Shown: positions 1 through 5,322 of the stretch, piece after piece
How the letters are laid out: every line of letters begins with the position of its first letter
Numbering within the stretch: the first letter of the stretch is position 1
Source: Candidatus Amesbacteria bacterium GW2011_GWA1_47_20
GTDB lineage: Bacteria; Patescibacteriota; Microgenomatia; CAZETR01; Amesbacteraceae
NCBI GenBank assembly: GCA_001002405.1
Contig: LCOA01000001.1
Coordinates: 1-38,753 of the forward strand
Direction: 5' to 3'
DNA length: 38,753 nt
Position numbers and translations under genes: made by a program
Notes under the pieces: generated by a model
The model's database searches: none
The model's input: the letters and a program-made list of their open reading frames with translations, nothing else
Told to the model about the DNA's origin: nothing

Positions 1-1
1 C

Positions 2-121
2 CTACTCATAGGAGAATTGCTTTCCCGCTCTCCTCTGGCCCGTAAAATCGTCCTGGGCACTTTCGCTCTGGCCTTCATTATTTTTCTCTCCCTCTTCGCC
101 CGGGGATATTGGGTAGGTTGA
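2..121 (+). CDS. 3' end of a membrane protein (5'-partial), probably a PIG-V-like/GT-C mannosyltransferase-family protein
   Basis: Frame from base 2 reads LLIGELLSRSPLARKIVLGTFALAFIIFLSLFARGYWVG then TGA at 119-121. A hydrophobic helix ending in FxRGYWV resembles C-termini of bacterial PIG-V-like proteins (recalled). Not in the ORF track. Confidence 0.6.
   Translation, partial: LLIGELLSRSPLARKIVLGTFALAFIIFLSLFARGYWVG
89..121 (+). repeat. Direct repeat copy 1 (33 bp, gene 3' end)
   Basis: tccctcttcgcccggggatattgggtaggttga; 30/33 identical to 1616-1648. Confidence 0.9.
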
Positions 122-123
122 AC

Positions 124-149
124 TGAAAACAAATCGTTAATTGTTTTCA
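124..149. promoter_or_regulatory. Inverted repeat, candidate operator abutting the -35 box
   Basis: TGAAAACAA-N8-TTGTTTTCA with perfect 9-bp arms; another TGAAAAC half-site at 157-163 lies in the promoter spacer. Confidence 0.55.
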
Positions 150-178
150 TTGACAGTGAAAACTATTTATAGTATAGT
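150..178 (+). promoter_or_regulatory. Sigma70-type promoter of the ATPase gene
   Basis: TTGACA (150-155), 17-nt spacer, TATAGT (173-178); ATG follows 9 nt later with no Shine-Dalgarno. Confidence 0.8.
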
Positions 179-187
179 TACATTATT

Positions 188-1453
188 ATGACGAAAGACC
201 TTTTATCTTCAGTATTAAAAGAGCAGTTTGAAGCTTTTCAATCCCGGGACTTAGGCATTGAAAGGGAAGTTTTGGATCAACTCGGTGATATTGTCGCAAC
301 GCCTCAAATTACGGTTATCACTGGTTTACGGAGAGTAGGAAAGTCCACATTGCTCGCACAACTAGCCAGTAAATATCTCGACGGTGAGTATTATTTTGTC
401 AACTTTGAAGACGAGCGGCTTTTGCATTTTCAAGTCCAGGATTTTGATCTAATGTATGAAACATTGATTAGTCTATATGGAGAAAAAAAGACGTTTCTGT
501 TTGATGAAATCCAGAATGTGCCGGAATGGGAACGGTTTGTCCGCCGTCTTCATGACCAAGGGTATAAATTTGTTGTTACCGGTTCGAATGCTTCATTGTT
601 AAGTCAAGAACTGGGTACCCGGTTGACAGGCCGTTCTGTCAGAGTAGAGCTTTTCCCTTTCTCATTCCGGGAGTTTTTACAGTTCCACAAAGTAAAGATC
701 CCCAGCTTAAAGGTTCTAACTACAAAAGAAAGAGGCCGACTTCTTAAACTTTCAGGTGAGTATTTAGCTTCCGGCGGAATTCCGGATGCATTAAAGTATC
801 CCGAGCTCGCAATCCACAAGACGCTTTATGATGACGTGCTATATCGTGACATCGCGGCCCGTTACAAGCTCGATAACGTCAAAAGTTTAAAAGAGTTGAC
901 CTTTTATTTGGTAAGCAATATTTCTACCCTGGTTTCGTTTAATAAACTCAAAGAGCTTCTTAAGTTAGGAAGCGTCAATACTGTCAAAAGTTATATTGAC
1001 CACCTAGAAAACAGTTGGTTGTTTTTTGTGGTTAATAAATATGCGTATTCCGTTAAAGAACAACAGATCGCGGCCAAGAAGATTTACAGCATTGATACGG
1101 GATTATCCCAGTCAGTAGGATTCAGTTTTTCTGAAAATAAGGGGAAACTTATGGAAAACATAGTGTTCTTACAGCTAAAAAGAAAGAATCAAGACATTTA
1201 TTATTACAAAACGACTCAAGATTTTGAAGTAGATTTCTTTTTACCCAGGGAAAGTACGTTAATCCAAGTATCACAGTATTTTAATGCAAAAGATTCAAAA
1301 GAACGGGAATTAAGAGCCCTAGCCGCCGCTTCCGTCGAACAGAAAAAACCCACCAAATTAATCCTTGTGACCGAGGGAGAAAAACAAAATATTGAGCGGG
1401 AGGGCTTTCATATTGAAGTCGTTCCACTCTACGAGTGGTTATTAAAAGTTTAG
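188..1453 (+). CDS. AAA+ superfamily ATPase (AAA_14 plus DUF4143 type)
   Basis: Walker A GLRRVGKS, Walker B FLFDEIQ, TGS, LTGR, GGIP, KIYSIDTGL, ENIV, and a C-terminal EVDF...IQV nuclease-like motif. Confidence 0.9.
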   Translation: MTKDLLSSVLKEQFEAFQSRDLGIEREVLDQLGDIVATPQITVITGLRRVGKSTLLAQLASKYLDGEYYFVNFEDERLLHFQVQDFDLMYETLISLYGEKKTFLFDEIQNVPEWERFVRRLHDQGYKFVVTGSNASLLSQELGTRLTGRSVRVELFPFSFREFLQFHKVKIPSLKVLTTKERGRLLKLSGEYLASGGIPDALKYPELAIHKTLYDDVLYRDIAARYKLDNVKSLKELTFYLVSNISTLVSFNKLKELLKLGSVNTVKSYIDHLENSWLFFVVNKYAYSVKEQQIAAKKIYSIDTGLSQSVGFSFSENKGKLMENIVFLQLKRKNQDIYYYKTTQDFEVDFFLPRESTLIQVSQYFNAKDSKERELRALAAASVEQKKPTKLILVTEGEKQNIEREGFHIEVVPLYEWLLKV

Positions 1454-1487
1454 AATGTGATGAAACACAAAGAAAATATTAATTTAT

Positions 1488-1616
1488 CCCCCTTCGCAGA
1501 AAACCGCGGGCGTAAGCCCGAGGATGAATGCGAAGAAATTTCTGCTTCGGAGGGATTTCGCTCCCGACGAAGCAGCAGGGAGAAGATACCCCGGGCGTCA
1601 GCCCGGGGAGCTTCAT
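1488..1616 (+). mobile_element. Non-autonomous IS200/IS605-type palindromic mini-element (PATE/MITE-like), 129 bp
   Basis: GC-rich insert after TTTAT (1483-1487). Left hairpin CCGCGGGC-GTAA-GCCCGAGG (1504-1523) sits inside CTTCGCA/TGCGAAG. Central stem CTGCTTCG/CGAAGCAG (1542-1575). Right hairpin CCCCGGGC-GTCA-GCCCGGGG (1589-1608) is followed by AGCTTCAT. Removing it restores the frame INLSLFARGYWVS*. Exact ends are uncertain by a few bases. Confidence 0.7.
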
Positions 1617-1648
1617 CCCTCTTCGCCCGAGGATATTGGGTAAGTTAA
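1616..1648 (+). repeat. Direct repeat copy 2: orphan gene 3' end (SLFARGYWVS*)
   Basis: tccctcttcgcccgaggatattgggtaagttaa; three G-to-A differences from 89-121; ends 1 nt before the ATG at 1650. Confidence 0.9.
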
Positions 1649-1649
1649 A

Positions 1650-2441
1650 ATGAAGCCCAAATTATCAATCATAGTTCCAATTTATAAACAAGGGAAAACT
1701 ATCGAGAAAGACTTACGCCGTATCAAACAAGTGCTAAACAAACTTCGATATTCCTCCGAGTTAATAGCGGTAGTCGATGGATATGTAGACGACTCATTCA
1801 AGAACGCCTCCAGAGTACCCGGGGTCAAAGTGGTGGGATACCCAACCAATAAAGGCAAAGGCCACGCCGTACGGTTTGGCATGGCCAAAAGCAGGGGAAA
1901 CATAATCGCCTTTATCGATTCGGGAATGGATATTAATCCCAATGGACTCTCCATGATTTTGGAACATTTTGAGTGGTATAACGCAGACATCATCGTCGGT
2001 TCAAAACGTCACCCGGTCTCTAAAGTTAATTACCCCTGGCAGCGCCGGATCTTGTCCTGGGGATATCAAATGGGCGTTAGAACTTTGTTTGGCTTAAACG
2101 TTAGAGACACCCAAGTTGGTCTAAAGTGCTATCGTCGTGAAGTTCTAGAAAAAGTAATGCCCAGGCTTATAGTCAAAAACTTCGCATTTGACATTGAAAT
2201 ATTAGCAGTGGCTTACCACTTGGGATTCAAAAGGATTTTTGAAGCTCCTGTTGAGATAGAATTAGATTTTGGCAAGAACTCGATTGTTACCAGCTCAAAA
2301 CTTTTTATTTTTGCGTATAACATGGCCGTTGATACCCTAGCCATTTTTTATCGTCTACACATCTTGAGATATTATGACGACGACAGCAAACGTAAATGGA
2401 GATTTGACCCAGAGCTTAATTTCCGGGTCAACACCACCTAA
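1650..2441 (+). CDS. GT2 glycosyltransferase, polyprenol/dolichol-phosphate-sugar synthase (DPG/DPM)-like
   Basis: LSIIVPIY, NKGKGHAV, FIDSGMDI, IVGSKR, DTQVGLKCY, FAFDIEIL. Confidence 0.85.
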   Translation: MKPKLSIIVPIYKQGKTIEKDLRRIKQVLNKLRYSSELIAVVDGYVDDSFKNASRVPGVKVVGYPTNKGKGHAVRFGMAKSRGNIIAFIDSGMDINPNGLSMILEHFEWYNADIIVGSKRHPVSKVNYPWQRRILSWGYQMGVRTLFGLNVRDTQVGLKCYRREVLEKVMPRLIVKNFAFDIEILAVAYHLGFKRIFEAPVEIELDFGKNSIVTSSKLFIFAYNMAVDTLAIFYRLHILRYYDDDSKRKWRFDPELNFRVNTT

Positions 2442-2676
2442 TAGCTCTCGACATATTAAAGTTTCTCCTTCAAAGTGATCACCTCCGTCCTTGTAACTGT
2501 GGGCCAAAATTTCCCATGCCAAGCCTTTCCGTTCCGACCAGTTTTTCCTCAAAAACTCTCTACAGTGATATTACTGGCAAAATACTTCACAGAGATACCA
2601 AATACTTATCCAGCTCCGGTAGCGCGCGTGTCGCCACATATATGCCCCTAAACTTTTATACATTGCCTTTTTAAAC

Positions 2677-2721
2677 TATAATTACAATCATAAATCTAAA
2701 CAAAAACTTACTAGTTATAAT
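2677..2721 (+). promoter_or_regulatory. Two tandem TATAAT -10 boxes
   Basis: TATAAT at 2677-2682 and 2716-2721, each 7 nt before an in-frame codon (ATA at 2690, GTG at 2729). No clear -35. Confidence 0.45.
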
Positions 2722-2728
2722 ATTAACT

Positions 2729-4225
2729 GTGGGGAGTGTGTTATGGAACGGGAGCGTTTTTTTACCTTACGCCAAAAGCATAAATCAAGACATCAGACTT
2801 TTTGGAGCTCACCACAACGATGGAGTTAACAATATTGCTCTCATAAAAAGCCTGCAATATTCTCTCCCTCCCATGGATCCAAATTACTCTGGCAGGGTCA
2901 TTAAGAATTATCACTATTTTATTAATCTGATCTTAGCCGCAATACAAAAGGTTACTCAAATAGATCCCTTTATCTTGTATTTTGGTATTGCCCCGACAGT
3001 CATGATTATTATTCTGTCAATTCTTGTCTACTTTTTCGTTCTGACCCAAGCCGGAAAATTGCCCGCGGTTTTAGCCATCCTATTTGTTAATTTTTTAGGA
3101 AATTACTATTATCTGGGCCCACTTTTAGGATCGGTTAATCTCCATCCTTCCATCGCTTGGATGGATGAATACTCTACTCGCCTGGTAAATTACCAGCTCC
3201 TCTCTTCTTACATTCTGCTCATGGTTTTACTCCTGTTTTTAATCCGTCGTCGGCCGGCTGTTTTAGTCGGACTAATATCCGGACTGCTCATGGGATTCAA
3301 AGTTTACGCCTGGATTCTCTGGGAACTGGGGCTCTTAGCCTTTTCTTGGCGGAACAAATATTTTTTTCGCGCGTTTCTTTGGTCAGTGCTTTTTTCTCTT
3401 CCTGTCGGTTGGCTTTTATATCAACCTGGCGGGCAGGCCACCTTTATTTTTAAGCCGTTATGGATAATCAAATCTATGTATGAAAGCCCGGATAGATTTA
3501 ATCTTGTCGCTTGGGAGCTAGCTCGGCAAACATATTTATCCATTCGTAATTATTTGGGCATTTTTAAGCTCTACTTTCAGGGAGTGGTGGCCTTTTTAAT
3601 TATTAACTTCGGCCCCCGGCTCCTGGGGTTTTTTGCTCCCAAAAATTACCTTCTTAAAATCTTGACTTTTTTGGGAATTATTTTGCCTCTACTTCTAGCC
3701 CAAAGCGGTAGCAGCTGGAACGTCATCCAATTTAGCTATTATTCCGTTTTTTTCCTAAGTCTGCTTTTAGCCATCTCTCTCTCACGCTTTCCCCGACTCG
3801 TAGTTGTCCTATTTATTTTAATTTCCCTCCCCTCGGCGCTTTATATCAACTCCCAATATCTCAACCCACCTTACACAGTAAGTTATTCCCGTGGTTTCGT
3901 TCAAGCTCTCGATACTCTAGCCCGATTGCCTCAGGGAACAGTCTTGTCCCACCCATCATATTCCACCAATGCTGTTGTTTCGGCCTTGTCTAGCAAGCCG
4001 GTGTTCATTGCAGAAAGCATGATTTTAACATCATCCAGTATTGATACTAGACCCCGCCAACAATTCCGGGACAAATTTTTCTCAGGAATGACTTTACAAC
4101 CAAAAGATTTCTTGTCTGAAAATAATATTAGCTATATTATTTCTCCACAATATATTGACATCTCTAAATATATGCTTTTACCAATCTTCCAAAATTCCGA
4201 AGTTATAATATACTCAACACAATGA
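2729..4225 (+). CDS. Multi-pass membrane protein, putative GT-C-fold glycosyltransferase
   Basis: Many hydrophobic segments, an early external loop (HHNDG...NYHYF), GFKVYA, and a soluble C-terminal domain ending FLSENNISYI...FQNSEVIIY. Start codon uncertain. Confidence 0.6.
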   Translation: MGSVLWNGSVFLPYAKSINQDIRLFGAHHNDGVNNIALIKSLQYSLPPMDPNYSGRVIKNYHYFINLILAAIQKVTQIDPFILYFGIAPTVMIIILSILVYFFVLTQAGKLPAVLAILFVNFLGNYYYLGPLLGSVNLHPSIAWMDEYSTRLVNYQLLSSYILLMVLLLFLIRRRPAVLVGLISGLLMGFKVYAWILWELGLLAFSWRNKYFFRAFLWSVLFSLPVGWLLYQPGGQATFIFKPLWIIKSMYESPDRFNLVAWELARQTYLSIRNYLGIFKLYFQGVVAFLIINFGPRLLGFFAPKNYLLKILTFLGIILPLLLAQSGSSWNVIQFSYYSVFFLSLLLAISLSRFPRLVVVLFILISLPSALYINSQYLNPPYTVSYSRGFVQALDTLARLPQGTVLSHPSYSTNAVVSALSSKPVFIAESMILTSSSIDTRPRQQFRDKFFSGMTLQPKDFLSENNISYIISPQYIDISKYMLLPIFQNSEVIIYSTQ

Positions 4226-5322
4226 ATATTTTAATCCTTGATTGGCGCGACCCGAAAAATCCTCGCTCCGGGGGAGCAGAGGTCATAACATTCAAATACG
4301 CAAAACATTGGGCTAGAACTGGTCATTCAGTATGTTGGATATGCAATACTTTTCCAGGATGCTCTCGCAACGAAATGTTATCTGGAGTTAAATTTATTAG
4401 GGTGAGTCCAAACTTAGGATTCACTGTGTTTGAACTAATATTTACGTACCCGCTATTTCTATCCGCAGCGATTCTCAAAGCGTTTCGTCTAATCCATACA
4501 CAGAAGATAGATATGGTTATTGATGAAATTCACGGCCTGCCCTTTTTTACCCCATTTTATTCCAGAGCTAGAAATGTGCTTTTGGTTTGTGAAGTGGCGG
4601 GACCCATTTGGGACAAAATGTTTCCATTCCCAATTAGTTTAATTGGTAAATTCCTAGAAAAAGTTATTTATTACGTTTACCACAATACCGAAACTTGGGC
4701 CATATCACAAAATACCAAGAAAGATATATTTGATTTAAATAAAAACTCCAATATTAAAATTCTCCCCTTAGGAATTGATTTTAAAAAACGACCAAATGTT
4801 AAGAAATTTTCATTTCCCTCAGCTGTTTTCTTGGGTAGATTGGTAAAAATGAAAGGGGTTGAATCGGCGATTGCTGCTGCTGCTGATATAGCGAAGAAAT
4901 TACCTAAATTTCATCTGTATATTATTGGCTTGGCAGGAAATGAATATTTAGATTTTTTAAAAAATCTGGCATTTGACTTAAAAATAAGCAAAAATGTCAC
5001 CTTTTGCGGAAGACTGACCGAAGAGGCCAAATATAAACTGTTAGCCCAGTGCCATTTTTTACTGCACCCATCTTACAAAGAAGGCTTTGGGCTGACAGTC
5101 TTGGAAGCGGGCCTTATGGGGACGCCAACAATAGCGCGTACTGGTAGTAGTTTGGACAATTTGATTACCCACGCTCATAACGGATTAATATTTACAAATA
5201 ATCAAAATATAAGTAATCTTTTTATAAATTATTATTCTCGTCAACAGTATCAAAAACTTCAAAAAGGTGCCACGAAACTTGCAACTAGATATTTATGGAA
5301 CAAAATTTTAACAAAATTATGA
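4222..5322 (+). CDS. GT4 glycosyltransferase
   Basis: WRDPKNPRSGGAE, FLGRLVKMKG, PSYKEGFGLTVLEA (E-x7-E); ATGA overlap with the upstream stop. Confidence 0.9.
   Translation: MNILILDWRDPKNPRSGGAEVITFKYAKHWARTGHSVCWICNTFPGCSRNEMLSGVKFIRVSPNLGFTVFELIFTYPLFLSAAILKAFRLIHTQKIDMVIDEIHGLPFFTPFYSRARNVLLVCEVAGPIWDKMFPFPISLIGKFLEKVIYYVYHNTETWAISQNTKKDIFDLNKNSNIKILPLGIDFKKRPNVKKFSFPSAVFLGRLVKMKGVESAIAAAADIAKKLPKFHLYIIGLAGNEYLDFLKNLAFDLKISKNVTFCGRLTEEAKYKLLAQCHFLLHPSYKEGFGLTVLEAGLMGTPTIARTGSSLDNLITHAHNGLIFTNNQNISNLFINYYSRQQYQKLQKGATKLATRYLWNKILTKL

Follow-up and report, generated by a model that had tools for sequence, protein, structure and literature searches.

How can a cassette that holds a single gene and no recombinase settle between two protein-coding genes, leave both intact and be framed on either side by a copy of the same gene end? 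The question is raised by the left end of contig C1 (LCOA01000001.1) of Candidatus Amesbacteria bacterium GW2011_GWA1_47_20, whose first 38,753 bases form the window analysed here. In it, a 1.37-kb cassette (122–1487), comprising one ATPase gene with its own palindrome-bearing promoter, lies between two 33-nt copies of the end of a gene for a PIG-V-like membrane mannosyltransferase. We propose that the cassette entered by insertion-duplication, that is, by a Campbell-type single crossover with the DNA of a relative and with no transposase or integrase involved, and we put the probability of this reading at roughly 0.55. The feature is a new cargo, in a new host, for a known, unexplained scar. 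How single defence or addiction genes spread without a transposase or integrase is poorly understood, and the locus is a clean natural example: the site is empty in sister genomes, other cargo occupies an adjacent junction, and about a dozen scarred cassettes lie in the same genome.

The genome (G000) comprises 692 kb in 37 contigs and is 92% complete. Throughout, C denotes its contigs, G other genomes, L sampled loci and X sequencing runs.

Results

A duplicated gene end at a site that is empty in relatives

The PIG-V-like gene enters the window with its 3' end only (1–121, plus strand), being truncated by the contig start, and its frame reads ...FIIFLSLFARGYWVG followed by the stop codon. 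Assignment to the PIG-V family comes from the G003 orthologue, which matches PF04188 (E 1.5e-9). The N-terminal part lies on C2 (3–674, minus strand; PF04188, E 6e-7), so that the gene is split over the starts of C2 and C1 with about 125 codons unassembled between the pieces, and the genome holds a single PIG-V gene body. Copy 1 of the repeat (89–121, plus strand; ending GGT TGA) is still attached to this gene, while the orphan copy 2 (1616–1648, plus strand; ending AGT TAA) carries the translation-start region of a family-2 glycosyltransferase (GT2) gene (1650–2441, plus strand; PF00535, E 2.5e-17), the ancestral downstream neighbour, with orthologues in 30 relatives. A first-pass annotation, made from the letters of the window alone, had described a 33-nt repeat with three G-to-A changes and a second copy ending 1 nt before the next ATG, and this description is borne out in full: the copies are identical at 30 of 33 positions, they differ at CGG/CGA (silent, Arg), GGT/AGT (Gly/Ser) and TGA/TAA, in every case as G in copy 1 against A in copy 2, and the TAA of copy 2 (1646–1648) ends 1 nt before the GT2 ATG at 1650. 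Since the 33 nt stand on both sides of the insert, the PIG-V-like gene retains its end and GT2 its translation-start region.

A repeat search lengthens the match to 89–127 versus 1616–1654 (35/39), but 122–127 is the conserved left end of the cassette and is also found at other cassette sites in L046 and L073; the extension is therefore microhomology outside the duplication. A leftward lengthening of copy 2 ('CTTCAT') was dropped, as these bases belong to the conserved 3' end of a miniature element described below. The first-pass annotation had further suggested searching the genome for other copies of the motif; BLAST of 1454–1649 finds the gene-end sequence at only two places in the 692 kb (second place, E=2.3e-7).

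The empty site is seen in the closest relatives. In G003 and G002, which belong to the same genus, and in L073, the PIG-V-like gene ends in ...RGYWV[S/A] and its stop codon, and directly abuts the GT2 start codon. More broadly, a GT2 orthologue was placed in 29 relatives and the sequence upstream of it inspected, and an RGYWV-like gene end stands there in 8 of them. As the gene end abuts GT2 in the closest relatives, the window segment is an insertion, and the earlier view that it had entered at a gene end and left both flanking genes intact holds. The accompanying claim that copy 2 is the ancestral end does not: compared with L073, copy 2 keeps AGT-TAA but copy 1 keeps CGG. Neither copy is simply ancestral on this comparison, and each may be a hybrid. 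The final Ser shared by copy 2 and G003 is a coincidence, the codons being different (AGT versus TCA).

The cassette and its mobility

The left end of the cassette and its promoter (122–187, plus strand) comprise the conserved end motif ACTGAAAAC, a palindrome and the −35 and −10 boxes. The promoter is sigma-70-like, with an 11/12 match (TTGACA at 150–155, a 17-nt spacer, TATAGT at 173–178), and the palindrome GTTTTCA-TTGACAG-TGAAAAC (143–163) overlaps the −35 box. The ATG follows the −10 box by 9 nt, which would leave the ATPase mRNA almost without a leader. Each of the five orthologues that we found, all of them at other sites (L045–L048, L073), is preceded by the palindrome and the end motif. 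The half-site TGAAAAC occurs three times around the −35 box (124–130, inverted at 143–149, and 157–163), an arrangement that suggests a putative operator for self-regulation of the cassette; the motif is conserved in all five orthologues. Loose contig ends at position 139 in runs X5 and X8 show that the promoter occurs in other contexts as well.

The ATPase gene (188–1453, plus strand) encodes 421 amino acids, with assignments from Pfam and PADLOC: an N-terminal AAA_14 P-loop ATPase domain (PF13173, E 4.3e-39, residues 40–164) and a C-terminal DUF4143 domain of PD-(D/E)XK type (PF13635, E 3.2e-21, residues 220–356). The promoter, inverted repeat and ATPase gene that the first reading had placed between the copies are thus all there. 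In 32 relatives, Walker A G46/G51/K52 and Walker B D106/E107 are invariant, as are the acidic residues D303 and E323 of DUF4143, with E347 and D349 nearly so. The PADLOC model PDLC04787 (PDC-S01) matches with E 1.6e-107 and spans 23–420 of the 421 residues, which places the protein in the candidate defence family PDC-S01; a search of NCBIfam gave no match for the ATPase or for a 498-amino-acid membrane protein. DUF4143 appears in a table of PD-(D/E)XK nuclease families of unknown function (PMC3424549). PDC-S01 (AAA_14+DUF4143; COG1373) figures in passages of PMC12988326 as a fusion of an ATPase with a PD-(D/E)XK domain. By frequency it ranks fourth there among the candidate defence systems, which makes it one of the commonest such genes in prokaryotes; the family is not yet validated, and the passages do not say how the gene moves. 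The window gene matches the family over its full length. Titles and opening abstract lines of the literature retrieved for DUF4143, COG1373 and PDC-S01 describe no flanking duplications.

On its right side the cassette ends in a 34-nt flank (1454–1487, plus strand), with TTTAT, the landing motif of the miniature element, at 1483–1487. Positions 1460–1489 read MKHKENINLS, and 21 of these 30 nt match the start of the L030 GT2 gene from its ATG (P=0.008 against shuffles; 0 of 500 random 30-mers of the window reach the score). This segment may be the first ten codons of the GT2 gene of a relative, brought in with the cassette.

Orthologous cassettes stand elsewhere in other genomes. In L073 (88% amino acid identity) and L046 (79%), the cassette lies between GT1 and PIG-V, on the other side of the same PIG-V gene; in L045 (79%) and L047 (58%) it lies in other contexts, and in L048 (54%) it adjoins the rpsJ end and has a repeat of 41 nt. 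Compared with L073, the ATPase is 88% identical while GT2, GT1 and PIG-V are 72–83% identical, and compared with G026 and G008 the ATPase is 79% identical and GT2 only 52–55%. Such disparities in identity, together with the changing sites, point to horizontal movement of the cassette.

L073, the one locus returned when related loci were sought with the single ATPase protein, is the public contig CAYIWX010000056.1 and is titled Saccharibacteria, although its genes are 72–88% identical to those of the window, an Amesbacteria genome; one of the two taxonomic labels is probably wrong.

The GT1/PIG-V junction is an insertion hot spot. It is empty in G003, and in the genome studied here it holds a different, distantly related AAA_14+DUF4143 gene (C2:620–1945, minus strand), the sixth such gene, with the result that the PIG-V gene carries an AAA_14+DUF4143 cassette on each side. 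In G002 (L074, G002:C1), the same junction holds a BrnT/BrnA pair (3991–4642) between 28-nt copies of the GT1 end that are 27/28 identical. The first-pass annotation had raised the question whether relatives carry different cargo, and such cargo does occupy this neighbouring junction.

The scar at other loci

Bracketing of genes by direct repeats was examined in the genome itself and in three samples of DUF4143 genes. In the genome, 331 open reading frames (ORFs) of at least 250 amino acids were found, 11 of them at contig edges, and 3 of the 320 tested were bracketed: two DUF4143 genes and a neighbour of one of them. This test left out the window ATPase (contig edge) and a DUF4143 gene on C14 (over-long ORF call), both of which are also bracketed. 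Among DUF4143 genes of relatives, 9 of 32 were bracketed by a direct repeat of at least 20 nt in 300-nt flanks; two further samples, with 400-nt flanks and at least 78% identity, gave 5 of 29 (one of which repeats a locus of the own genome) and 11 of 58. Pooled, 24 of 118 distinct DUF4143 genes sampled in the class are bracketed, as against 1 of 318 other long genes of the own genome.

The repeats, 20–183 nt long over the loci, are ends of neighbouring genes, usually 3' ends, belonging either to an upstream co-directional or to a downstream convergent gene. Members of the cassette family are bracketed by unrelated gene ends at other loci, among them those of rpsJ and a response regulator. An element aimed at the FxRGYWV-coding motif, as the first-pass annotation had imagined, does not agree with this use of unrelated gene ends, nor with the presence of close orthologues at another junction.

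Cassettes without DUF4143 carry the scar too. In the own genome, repeats of 22–67 nt derived from neighbouring gene ends flank an MNT/HepT pair (C5:2620–3330), two MNT/HepT pairs (C14:34794–36593), an NYN-domain gene (C29:2227–2943), an AbiEii gene (C19:7319–8300), an RNase H gene (C14:18256–18844) and an EamA transporter gene (C7:308–1736; repeat 66/67 identical). Because toxin-antitoxin cassettes in the own genome and in a sister genome bear the same scar, the ATPase need not be its cause.

Three loci show more elaborate arrangements. In L062 (1335–4135), three diverged, in-frame copies of one gene end bracket two DUF4143 cassettes whose ATPases share 27% amino acid identity, and L072 (1360–3511) is likewise a tandem array, with three copies of one gene end around two different DUF4143 cassettes. 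In L157, a DUF4143 cassette lies between diverged copies, about 60 codons long, of the 3' part of the neighbouring gene (~560–760 and ~2340–2540); the duplicated part reads ...AWVWVDCE...LVNEELVKSGN and extends far beyond the 25-nt repeat found by BLAST.

The genome also contains a conventional integrative element, on C22 (5168–7976), where a large serine recombinase (534-amino-acid ORF) adjoins an ORF that has a copy of a tRNA 3' half on either side.

Codon periodicity of the differences between copies

If a repeat pair consists of two alleles, its differences should bear the mark of coding constraint in both copies. At several loci the differences are silent in the frame of the target gene: 3 of 3 in L068, 3 of 3 in C29, and 2 of 2 codons in L003. 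The C5 copies differ by TTG/CTC (Leu) and ACG/ACC (Thr), those of L127 by five silent codons (including CGA/AGG, Arg) against one Asn/Gln, and stop codons are exchanged for stop codons in the window (TGA/TAA) and in L059 (TAG/TGA). With frames assigned automatically as the longest outward ORF, the codon differences in 24 pairs were synonymous in 34 cases and non-synonymous in 28, with 2 further stop/sense changes, against 21.6% synonymous expected at random; at least three of these frames were mis-chosen, and each such error counts against the allele hypothesis.

A frame-free test was applied to the 17 pairs with at least two differences (79 differences in all), using as statistic the summed largest phase count. 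The observed value, T=53, compares with 42.6 ± 2.6 under random placement (P=0.0003). When the null is instead a mixture, with free drift of the orphan copy and a relative rate of 0.3 for the attached one, P is 0.009, and at a relative rate of 0.5 it is 0.03. The periodicity argues, with moderate and not decisive force, that coding constraint acted on both copies as they diverged, and hence that they did so in two genomes. The arrays of L062, the gene parts of L157 and the MKHKENINLS flank fit this allele reading.

A miniature element within the second copy

Between the first and second base of copy 2 sits a GC-rich miniature element of 129 nt with three or four hairpins (1488–1616, plus strand), and the 162 nt from the ATPase stop to copy 2 fold with a z-score of −7.85 relative to shuffled sequences. 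A scan of 1–3000 against Rfam gave no match at E≤1, placing the structured segment outside the catalogued RNA families. Copies that are 77–92% identical occur in 54 of 401 genomes of the bacterial class, usually one or two per genome; the genome studied here has a single one. In an alignment of 22 copies, conservation begins sharply at TTTAT and stops at ...GCTTCAT, the outer flanks being unrelated; within the landing motif, T3 and T5 are invariant and T2 and A4 at least 90% conserved. Compensatory changes were found in 12 of 32 predicted pairs, the stems are capped by four-base loops of GTAA/GTGA type, and among loci L077–L104 there are variants with extra or shortened hairpins (L082, L092, L094). 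The neighbours of the copies are unrelated housekeeping genes (obg, pth, mraZ, hisS, trmD, ftsH, pilC/pilin, nadD), with the element found in either orientation, and a DUF4143 gene lies beside it at 1 of 15 loci examined. Riboswitch, small-RNA and retron readings of 1483–1616 were discarded on account of the two orientations, the unrelated housekeeping neighbours and the lack of a reverse transcriptase nearby.

The segment is thus a separate miniature mobile element that landed after TTTAT later than the cassette, and the description of the insert as one single-gene cassette, which had missed it, has to be amended. Before the element landed, the 34-nt right flank of the cassette adjoined copy 2 directly. 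No empty site for the window copy was found, the sequences on either side of the G003 copy being without a DNA match in the own genome.

Elements of the IS200/IS605 type and Rickettsia palindromic elements are small, have hairpins near their ends, occupy a fixed short motif at the landing site and lack coding capacity. The window element resembles both in its size, its end hairpins, its position right after TTTAT and its lack of coding capacity, and also in having a length divisible by three and a reading frame open throughout. Its likeness to the IS200/IS605 type lies in sequence features; the genome has four genes resembling Y1-type (IS200-like, PF01797) transposases (C26:5514–5744, C7:18957–19196, C30:5849–6088 and C34:2930–3178), which are candidate movers of the element. 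None of the 15 element loci examined has a Y1 transposase beside it.

On C34, the Y1-type gene adjoins a DUF4143 cassette with flanking repeats; the duplicated end at that locus comes from a convergent gene, with which the Y1-type gene overlaps in its coordinates.

Discussion

Proposed insertion-duplication by a single crossover

In the scheme that we favour, the incoming DNA would have been a short fragment from a relative that already bore the cassette at the same junction. Besides the cassette, this fragment would have contained the final 33 nt of PIG-V on one side and some 10 initial codons of GT2 on the other, and it would have been circularised. A single crossover would then have joined the gene end of the donor with that of the resident, leaving a repeat on each side, and the two repeats would represent the donor allele and the resident allele, possibly as hybrids. 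The 129-nt miniature transposon landed after TTTAT at the right edge later. The same route through host recombination would explain the toxin-antitoxin cassettes with the same scar, and selfish or defence cargo of this kind would persist by being difficult to lose or by being useful. A flank reading MKHKENINLS is what would be expected of a donor fragment that reaches from the PIG-V end into GT2. As the first-pass annotation had noted, no integrase is in view: C1 carries no recombinase, the PF00589 tyrosine recombinases of the genome lying only on C9 and C12, the PF00239 serine recombinase on C22 and the Y1-type transposases on C26, C7, C30 and C34. The mechanism offered in that annotation was probably right in part, namely that a homologous gene end was brought in, and wrong in invoking a site-specific element aimed at a motif. 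In E. coli, passages of Amarir-Bouhram et al. (2011, PMC3240628) trace 56 of 60 integrants to recircularisation followed by one crossover, the incoming molecule being unable to replicate and homologous at one end; in 14 sequenced integrants the homologous locus was duplicated over 109–950 bp.

Several points weigh against this scheme. The window locus has only three differences between its copies and cannot by itself separate the models, so that the preference for a homologous donor over random decay, already voiced at first reading, draws its support from the 17 pooled loci. A homology of 33 nt is near the lower limit for RecA-type recombination. In the frame-free test, P rises to 0.2 when the relative rate of the attached copy is set to 1, with half of the differences in the constrained copy; the automatic frames yield 28 non-synonymous differences, and the frames at L160, L115, L163, L187 and L193 are uncertain. 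The GT2-like reading of 1460–1489 rests on 21 matches in 30, and the scheme leaves unexplained how the cassette first reached this junction in the donor, the 'primary' insertion. Logan contigs of four runs from four studies (X1, X5, X8 and X10, of which X1 may be the source sample of the genome) were aligned to 1–2400; no circular, cassette-free or element-free form was seen among them, contigs being prone to drop rare forms, and joints of ~121 to ~1649 and of 1487 to 1617 did not occur among the contigs of these runs. The single joint that was seen (168 to 1007) lies on a contig with eight differences, looks like a paralogue of another organism and was set aside.

Other explanations of the scar

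A true long target-site duplication deserves the closest comparison. On this account, the gene end was opened by nicks or breaks that lay 33 nt apart on the two strands and that may have been due to the PD-(D/E)XK nuclease of the cassette itself or to a replication fork. A linear cassette entered the opening, gap filling gave two copies that were at first identical, and these later drifted apart. Insertion of restriction-modification genes with long target duplication has been envisaged in this way. The breadth of repeat lengths (20–183 nt) and the lack of a common motif agree with it, as do the change of both window copies relative to L073, the microhomology at junctions (ACTGAA versus AATGAA in the window, TATTAAA in L073), and the 100% identical repeats of L118, L140, L164 and the L059 core, such as are expected soon after duplication, although a crossover with a near-identical donor would leave identical repeats just as readily. 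Passages of Furuta et al. (2010, PMC2853133) link the scar to a shared property of restriction systems, for example double-strand breakage, and the window cargo does have a nuclease domain. Copy differences that are codon-periodic and mostly synonymous are, however, not expected of a freely decaying orphan; cassettes without a DNA nuclease (MNT/HepT, BrnT/BrnA, EamA) bear the same scar, and the three copies of L062, with the same boundaries, would call for two independent staggered cuts in the same 50 nt. We regard a long target-site duplication as possible, yet rather unlikely. Much less probable is that a tyrosine or serine recombinase, since lost or encoded at another place in the genome, integrated the cassette site-specifically through an attP that bears a replacement gene end. 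Elements that integrate into the ends of tRNA and protein genes leave direct repeats at the 3' end with the coding sense kept, a trace that the window resembles, and the genome possesses two tyrosine recombinases and one large serine recombinase, the latter beside the tRNA-flanked element on C22. None of them is on C1, the repeats at nine loci compared share no core motif and differ in length, close orthologues (L073, L046) occupy a different junction without a long repeat, and unrelated cargo uses unrelated gene ends. An integron cassette was considered and rejected: GTTGAAC in copy 1 fits the core-site motif, but there is no integron integrase, both tyrosine recombinases of the genome lie away from C1, and the repeats measure 33 nt instead of 7.

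Two further accounts were weighed. The contig might join two copies of the miniature element, such that the ATPase side (1–1545) and the GT2 side (1528 onwards) are not neighbours. No listed Logan contig bridges 1546–1573, which counts against insertion-duplication as well; the depth of the 1521–1600 bin is 4–40 times that of its surroundings in all four runs, the element being repeated across the community, and the window begins at a contig end inside the PIG-V gene. Against a misjoin, the flanking contigs have equal depth in three runs (33.1 versus 32.7, 4.3 versus 3.9, and 3.0 versus 2.8–4.4), the genome has one element copy and one PIG-V gene body, and the variable stem of the element pairs correctly across the break (CTGC with GCAG). 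At least 120 nt of PIG-V 3' sequence are continuous with copy 1, and a 1748-nt contig extends this by about 200 nt, where copy 2 has only 33 nt of the gene; bracketing of this kind is also seen at 24 further loci, all of which lack the element. The left junction is bridged without differences in X1 (1–1545), X5 (1–317) and X8 (93–249), and the right junction in X1 (1528–2400) and X5 (1574–1950). A misjoin is unlikely, and we accord it only a slight chance. Alternatively, two PIG-V-like genes might once have flanked the ATPase, with copy 2 as a leftover of a deletion; L157 illustrates that long, diverged gene fragments of about 60 codons can flank such a cassette. The first-pass annotation had named full-length tandem PIG-V-like genes in relatives as the finding that would speak for this course of events, and they occur at 0 of the 29 relatives' loci. 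An RGYWV-like end stands next to GT2 in 8 of the 29 and directly abuts its start in the three closest, and the sequence preceding copy 2 belongs to the miniature element and the cassette flank instead of PIG-V. The idea of a tandem remnant is close to refuted.

What single-crossover entry would imply

Beyond the locus itself, we speculate, with considerable reserve, that PDC-S01 genes and small toxin-antitoxin modules of candidate-phyla bacteria may be recombinase-free mobile cassettes, which would loop out by recombination between their repeats and re-enter a relative by a single crossover. If this were true, the 'attachment site' of such cassettes would be a captured piece of a conserved host gene end, and the repeat would be refreshed again and again by working alleles, which would account for the codon-periodic differences. 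The fourth most common 'defence candidate' might then owe much of its abundance to its mode of spread and not to defence. Codon periodicity offers a simple test, applicable to any genome collection, between a 'duplicated target' and a 'captured allele'. Should the periodicity result hold, the 25-year-old 'long target duplication' of restriction-modification genes would be read anew as ordinary homologous recombination on very short captured flanks.

Relation to known systems

Insertion of restriction-modification units with long target duplication was reportedly described by Nobusato et al. in 2000. As presented in passages of Furuta et al. (2010, PMC2853133), these units are small and lack a mobility gene; the repeats beside them measure tens to hundreds of bases, occur once at the empty site and in some cases overlie a gene 3' end, as in a 46-bp repeat overlapping 15 bp of the end of HI0105; such repeats are far commoner around these units than around average genes, and the mechanism was left open. 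Measured by their definition, the insert is absent from related genomes that have the repeat in single copy (G003, G002, L073), the duplication of 33 nt is barely above the threshold of >30 bp, and the insert of ~1.5 kb, with the ATPase as its only gene, falls below 20 kb and contains no mobility gene. In place of restriction and modification genes there is a single ATPase-nuclease gene. As the cargo lacks the restriction and modification pair, the locus resembles the long-target-duplication class and is not a member as defined. Common to both are a small nuclease-bearing unit without a mobility gene, a direct repeat at a gene 3' end and the enrichment of such repeats; what sets our case apart is a single PDC-S01 gene with no methyltransferase, a small-genome candidate-phyla host and the occurrence of the scar around toxin-antitoxin cassettes in the same genome. 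The codon-periodic copy differences, moreover, point here to two alleles, an analysis that does not figure in the passages of Furuta et al. at hand. Of the two hallmarks of integrase-borne elements, an integrase in or beside the element and a common core to the repeats, the locus shows neither.

The nearest mechanistic parallel is the insertion-duplication of Amarir-Bouhram et al. (2011, PMC3240628), which, in the passages available, also involves one short homologous end, leaves a duplication on both sides and needs no dedicated recombinase. That was a laboratory event with a conjugated plasmid and duplications of 109–950 bp, whereas ours would be a natural one with repeats of 20–183 nt, 33 nt at the present locus. 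Classical homology-facilitated illegitimate recombination, by the same source, gives deletions and not duplications. Homology-anchored entry of conflict modules with orphan 3' ends has also been proposed, in passages of Kirchberger et al. (2017, PMC5361080), for T6SS effector-immunity and Rhs loci. There, as here, a conserved stretch of a gene anchors the new module, gene ends remain downstream of it, and arrays grow by repeated events, for which L062 and L072 may be compared; in the Rhs and T6SS arrays the old module is displaced and kept, whereas at our locus the gene end is duplicated and nothing is displaced.

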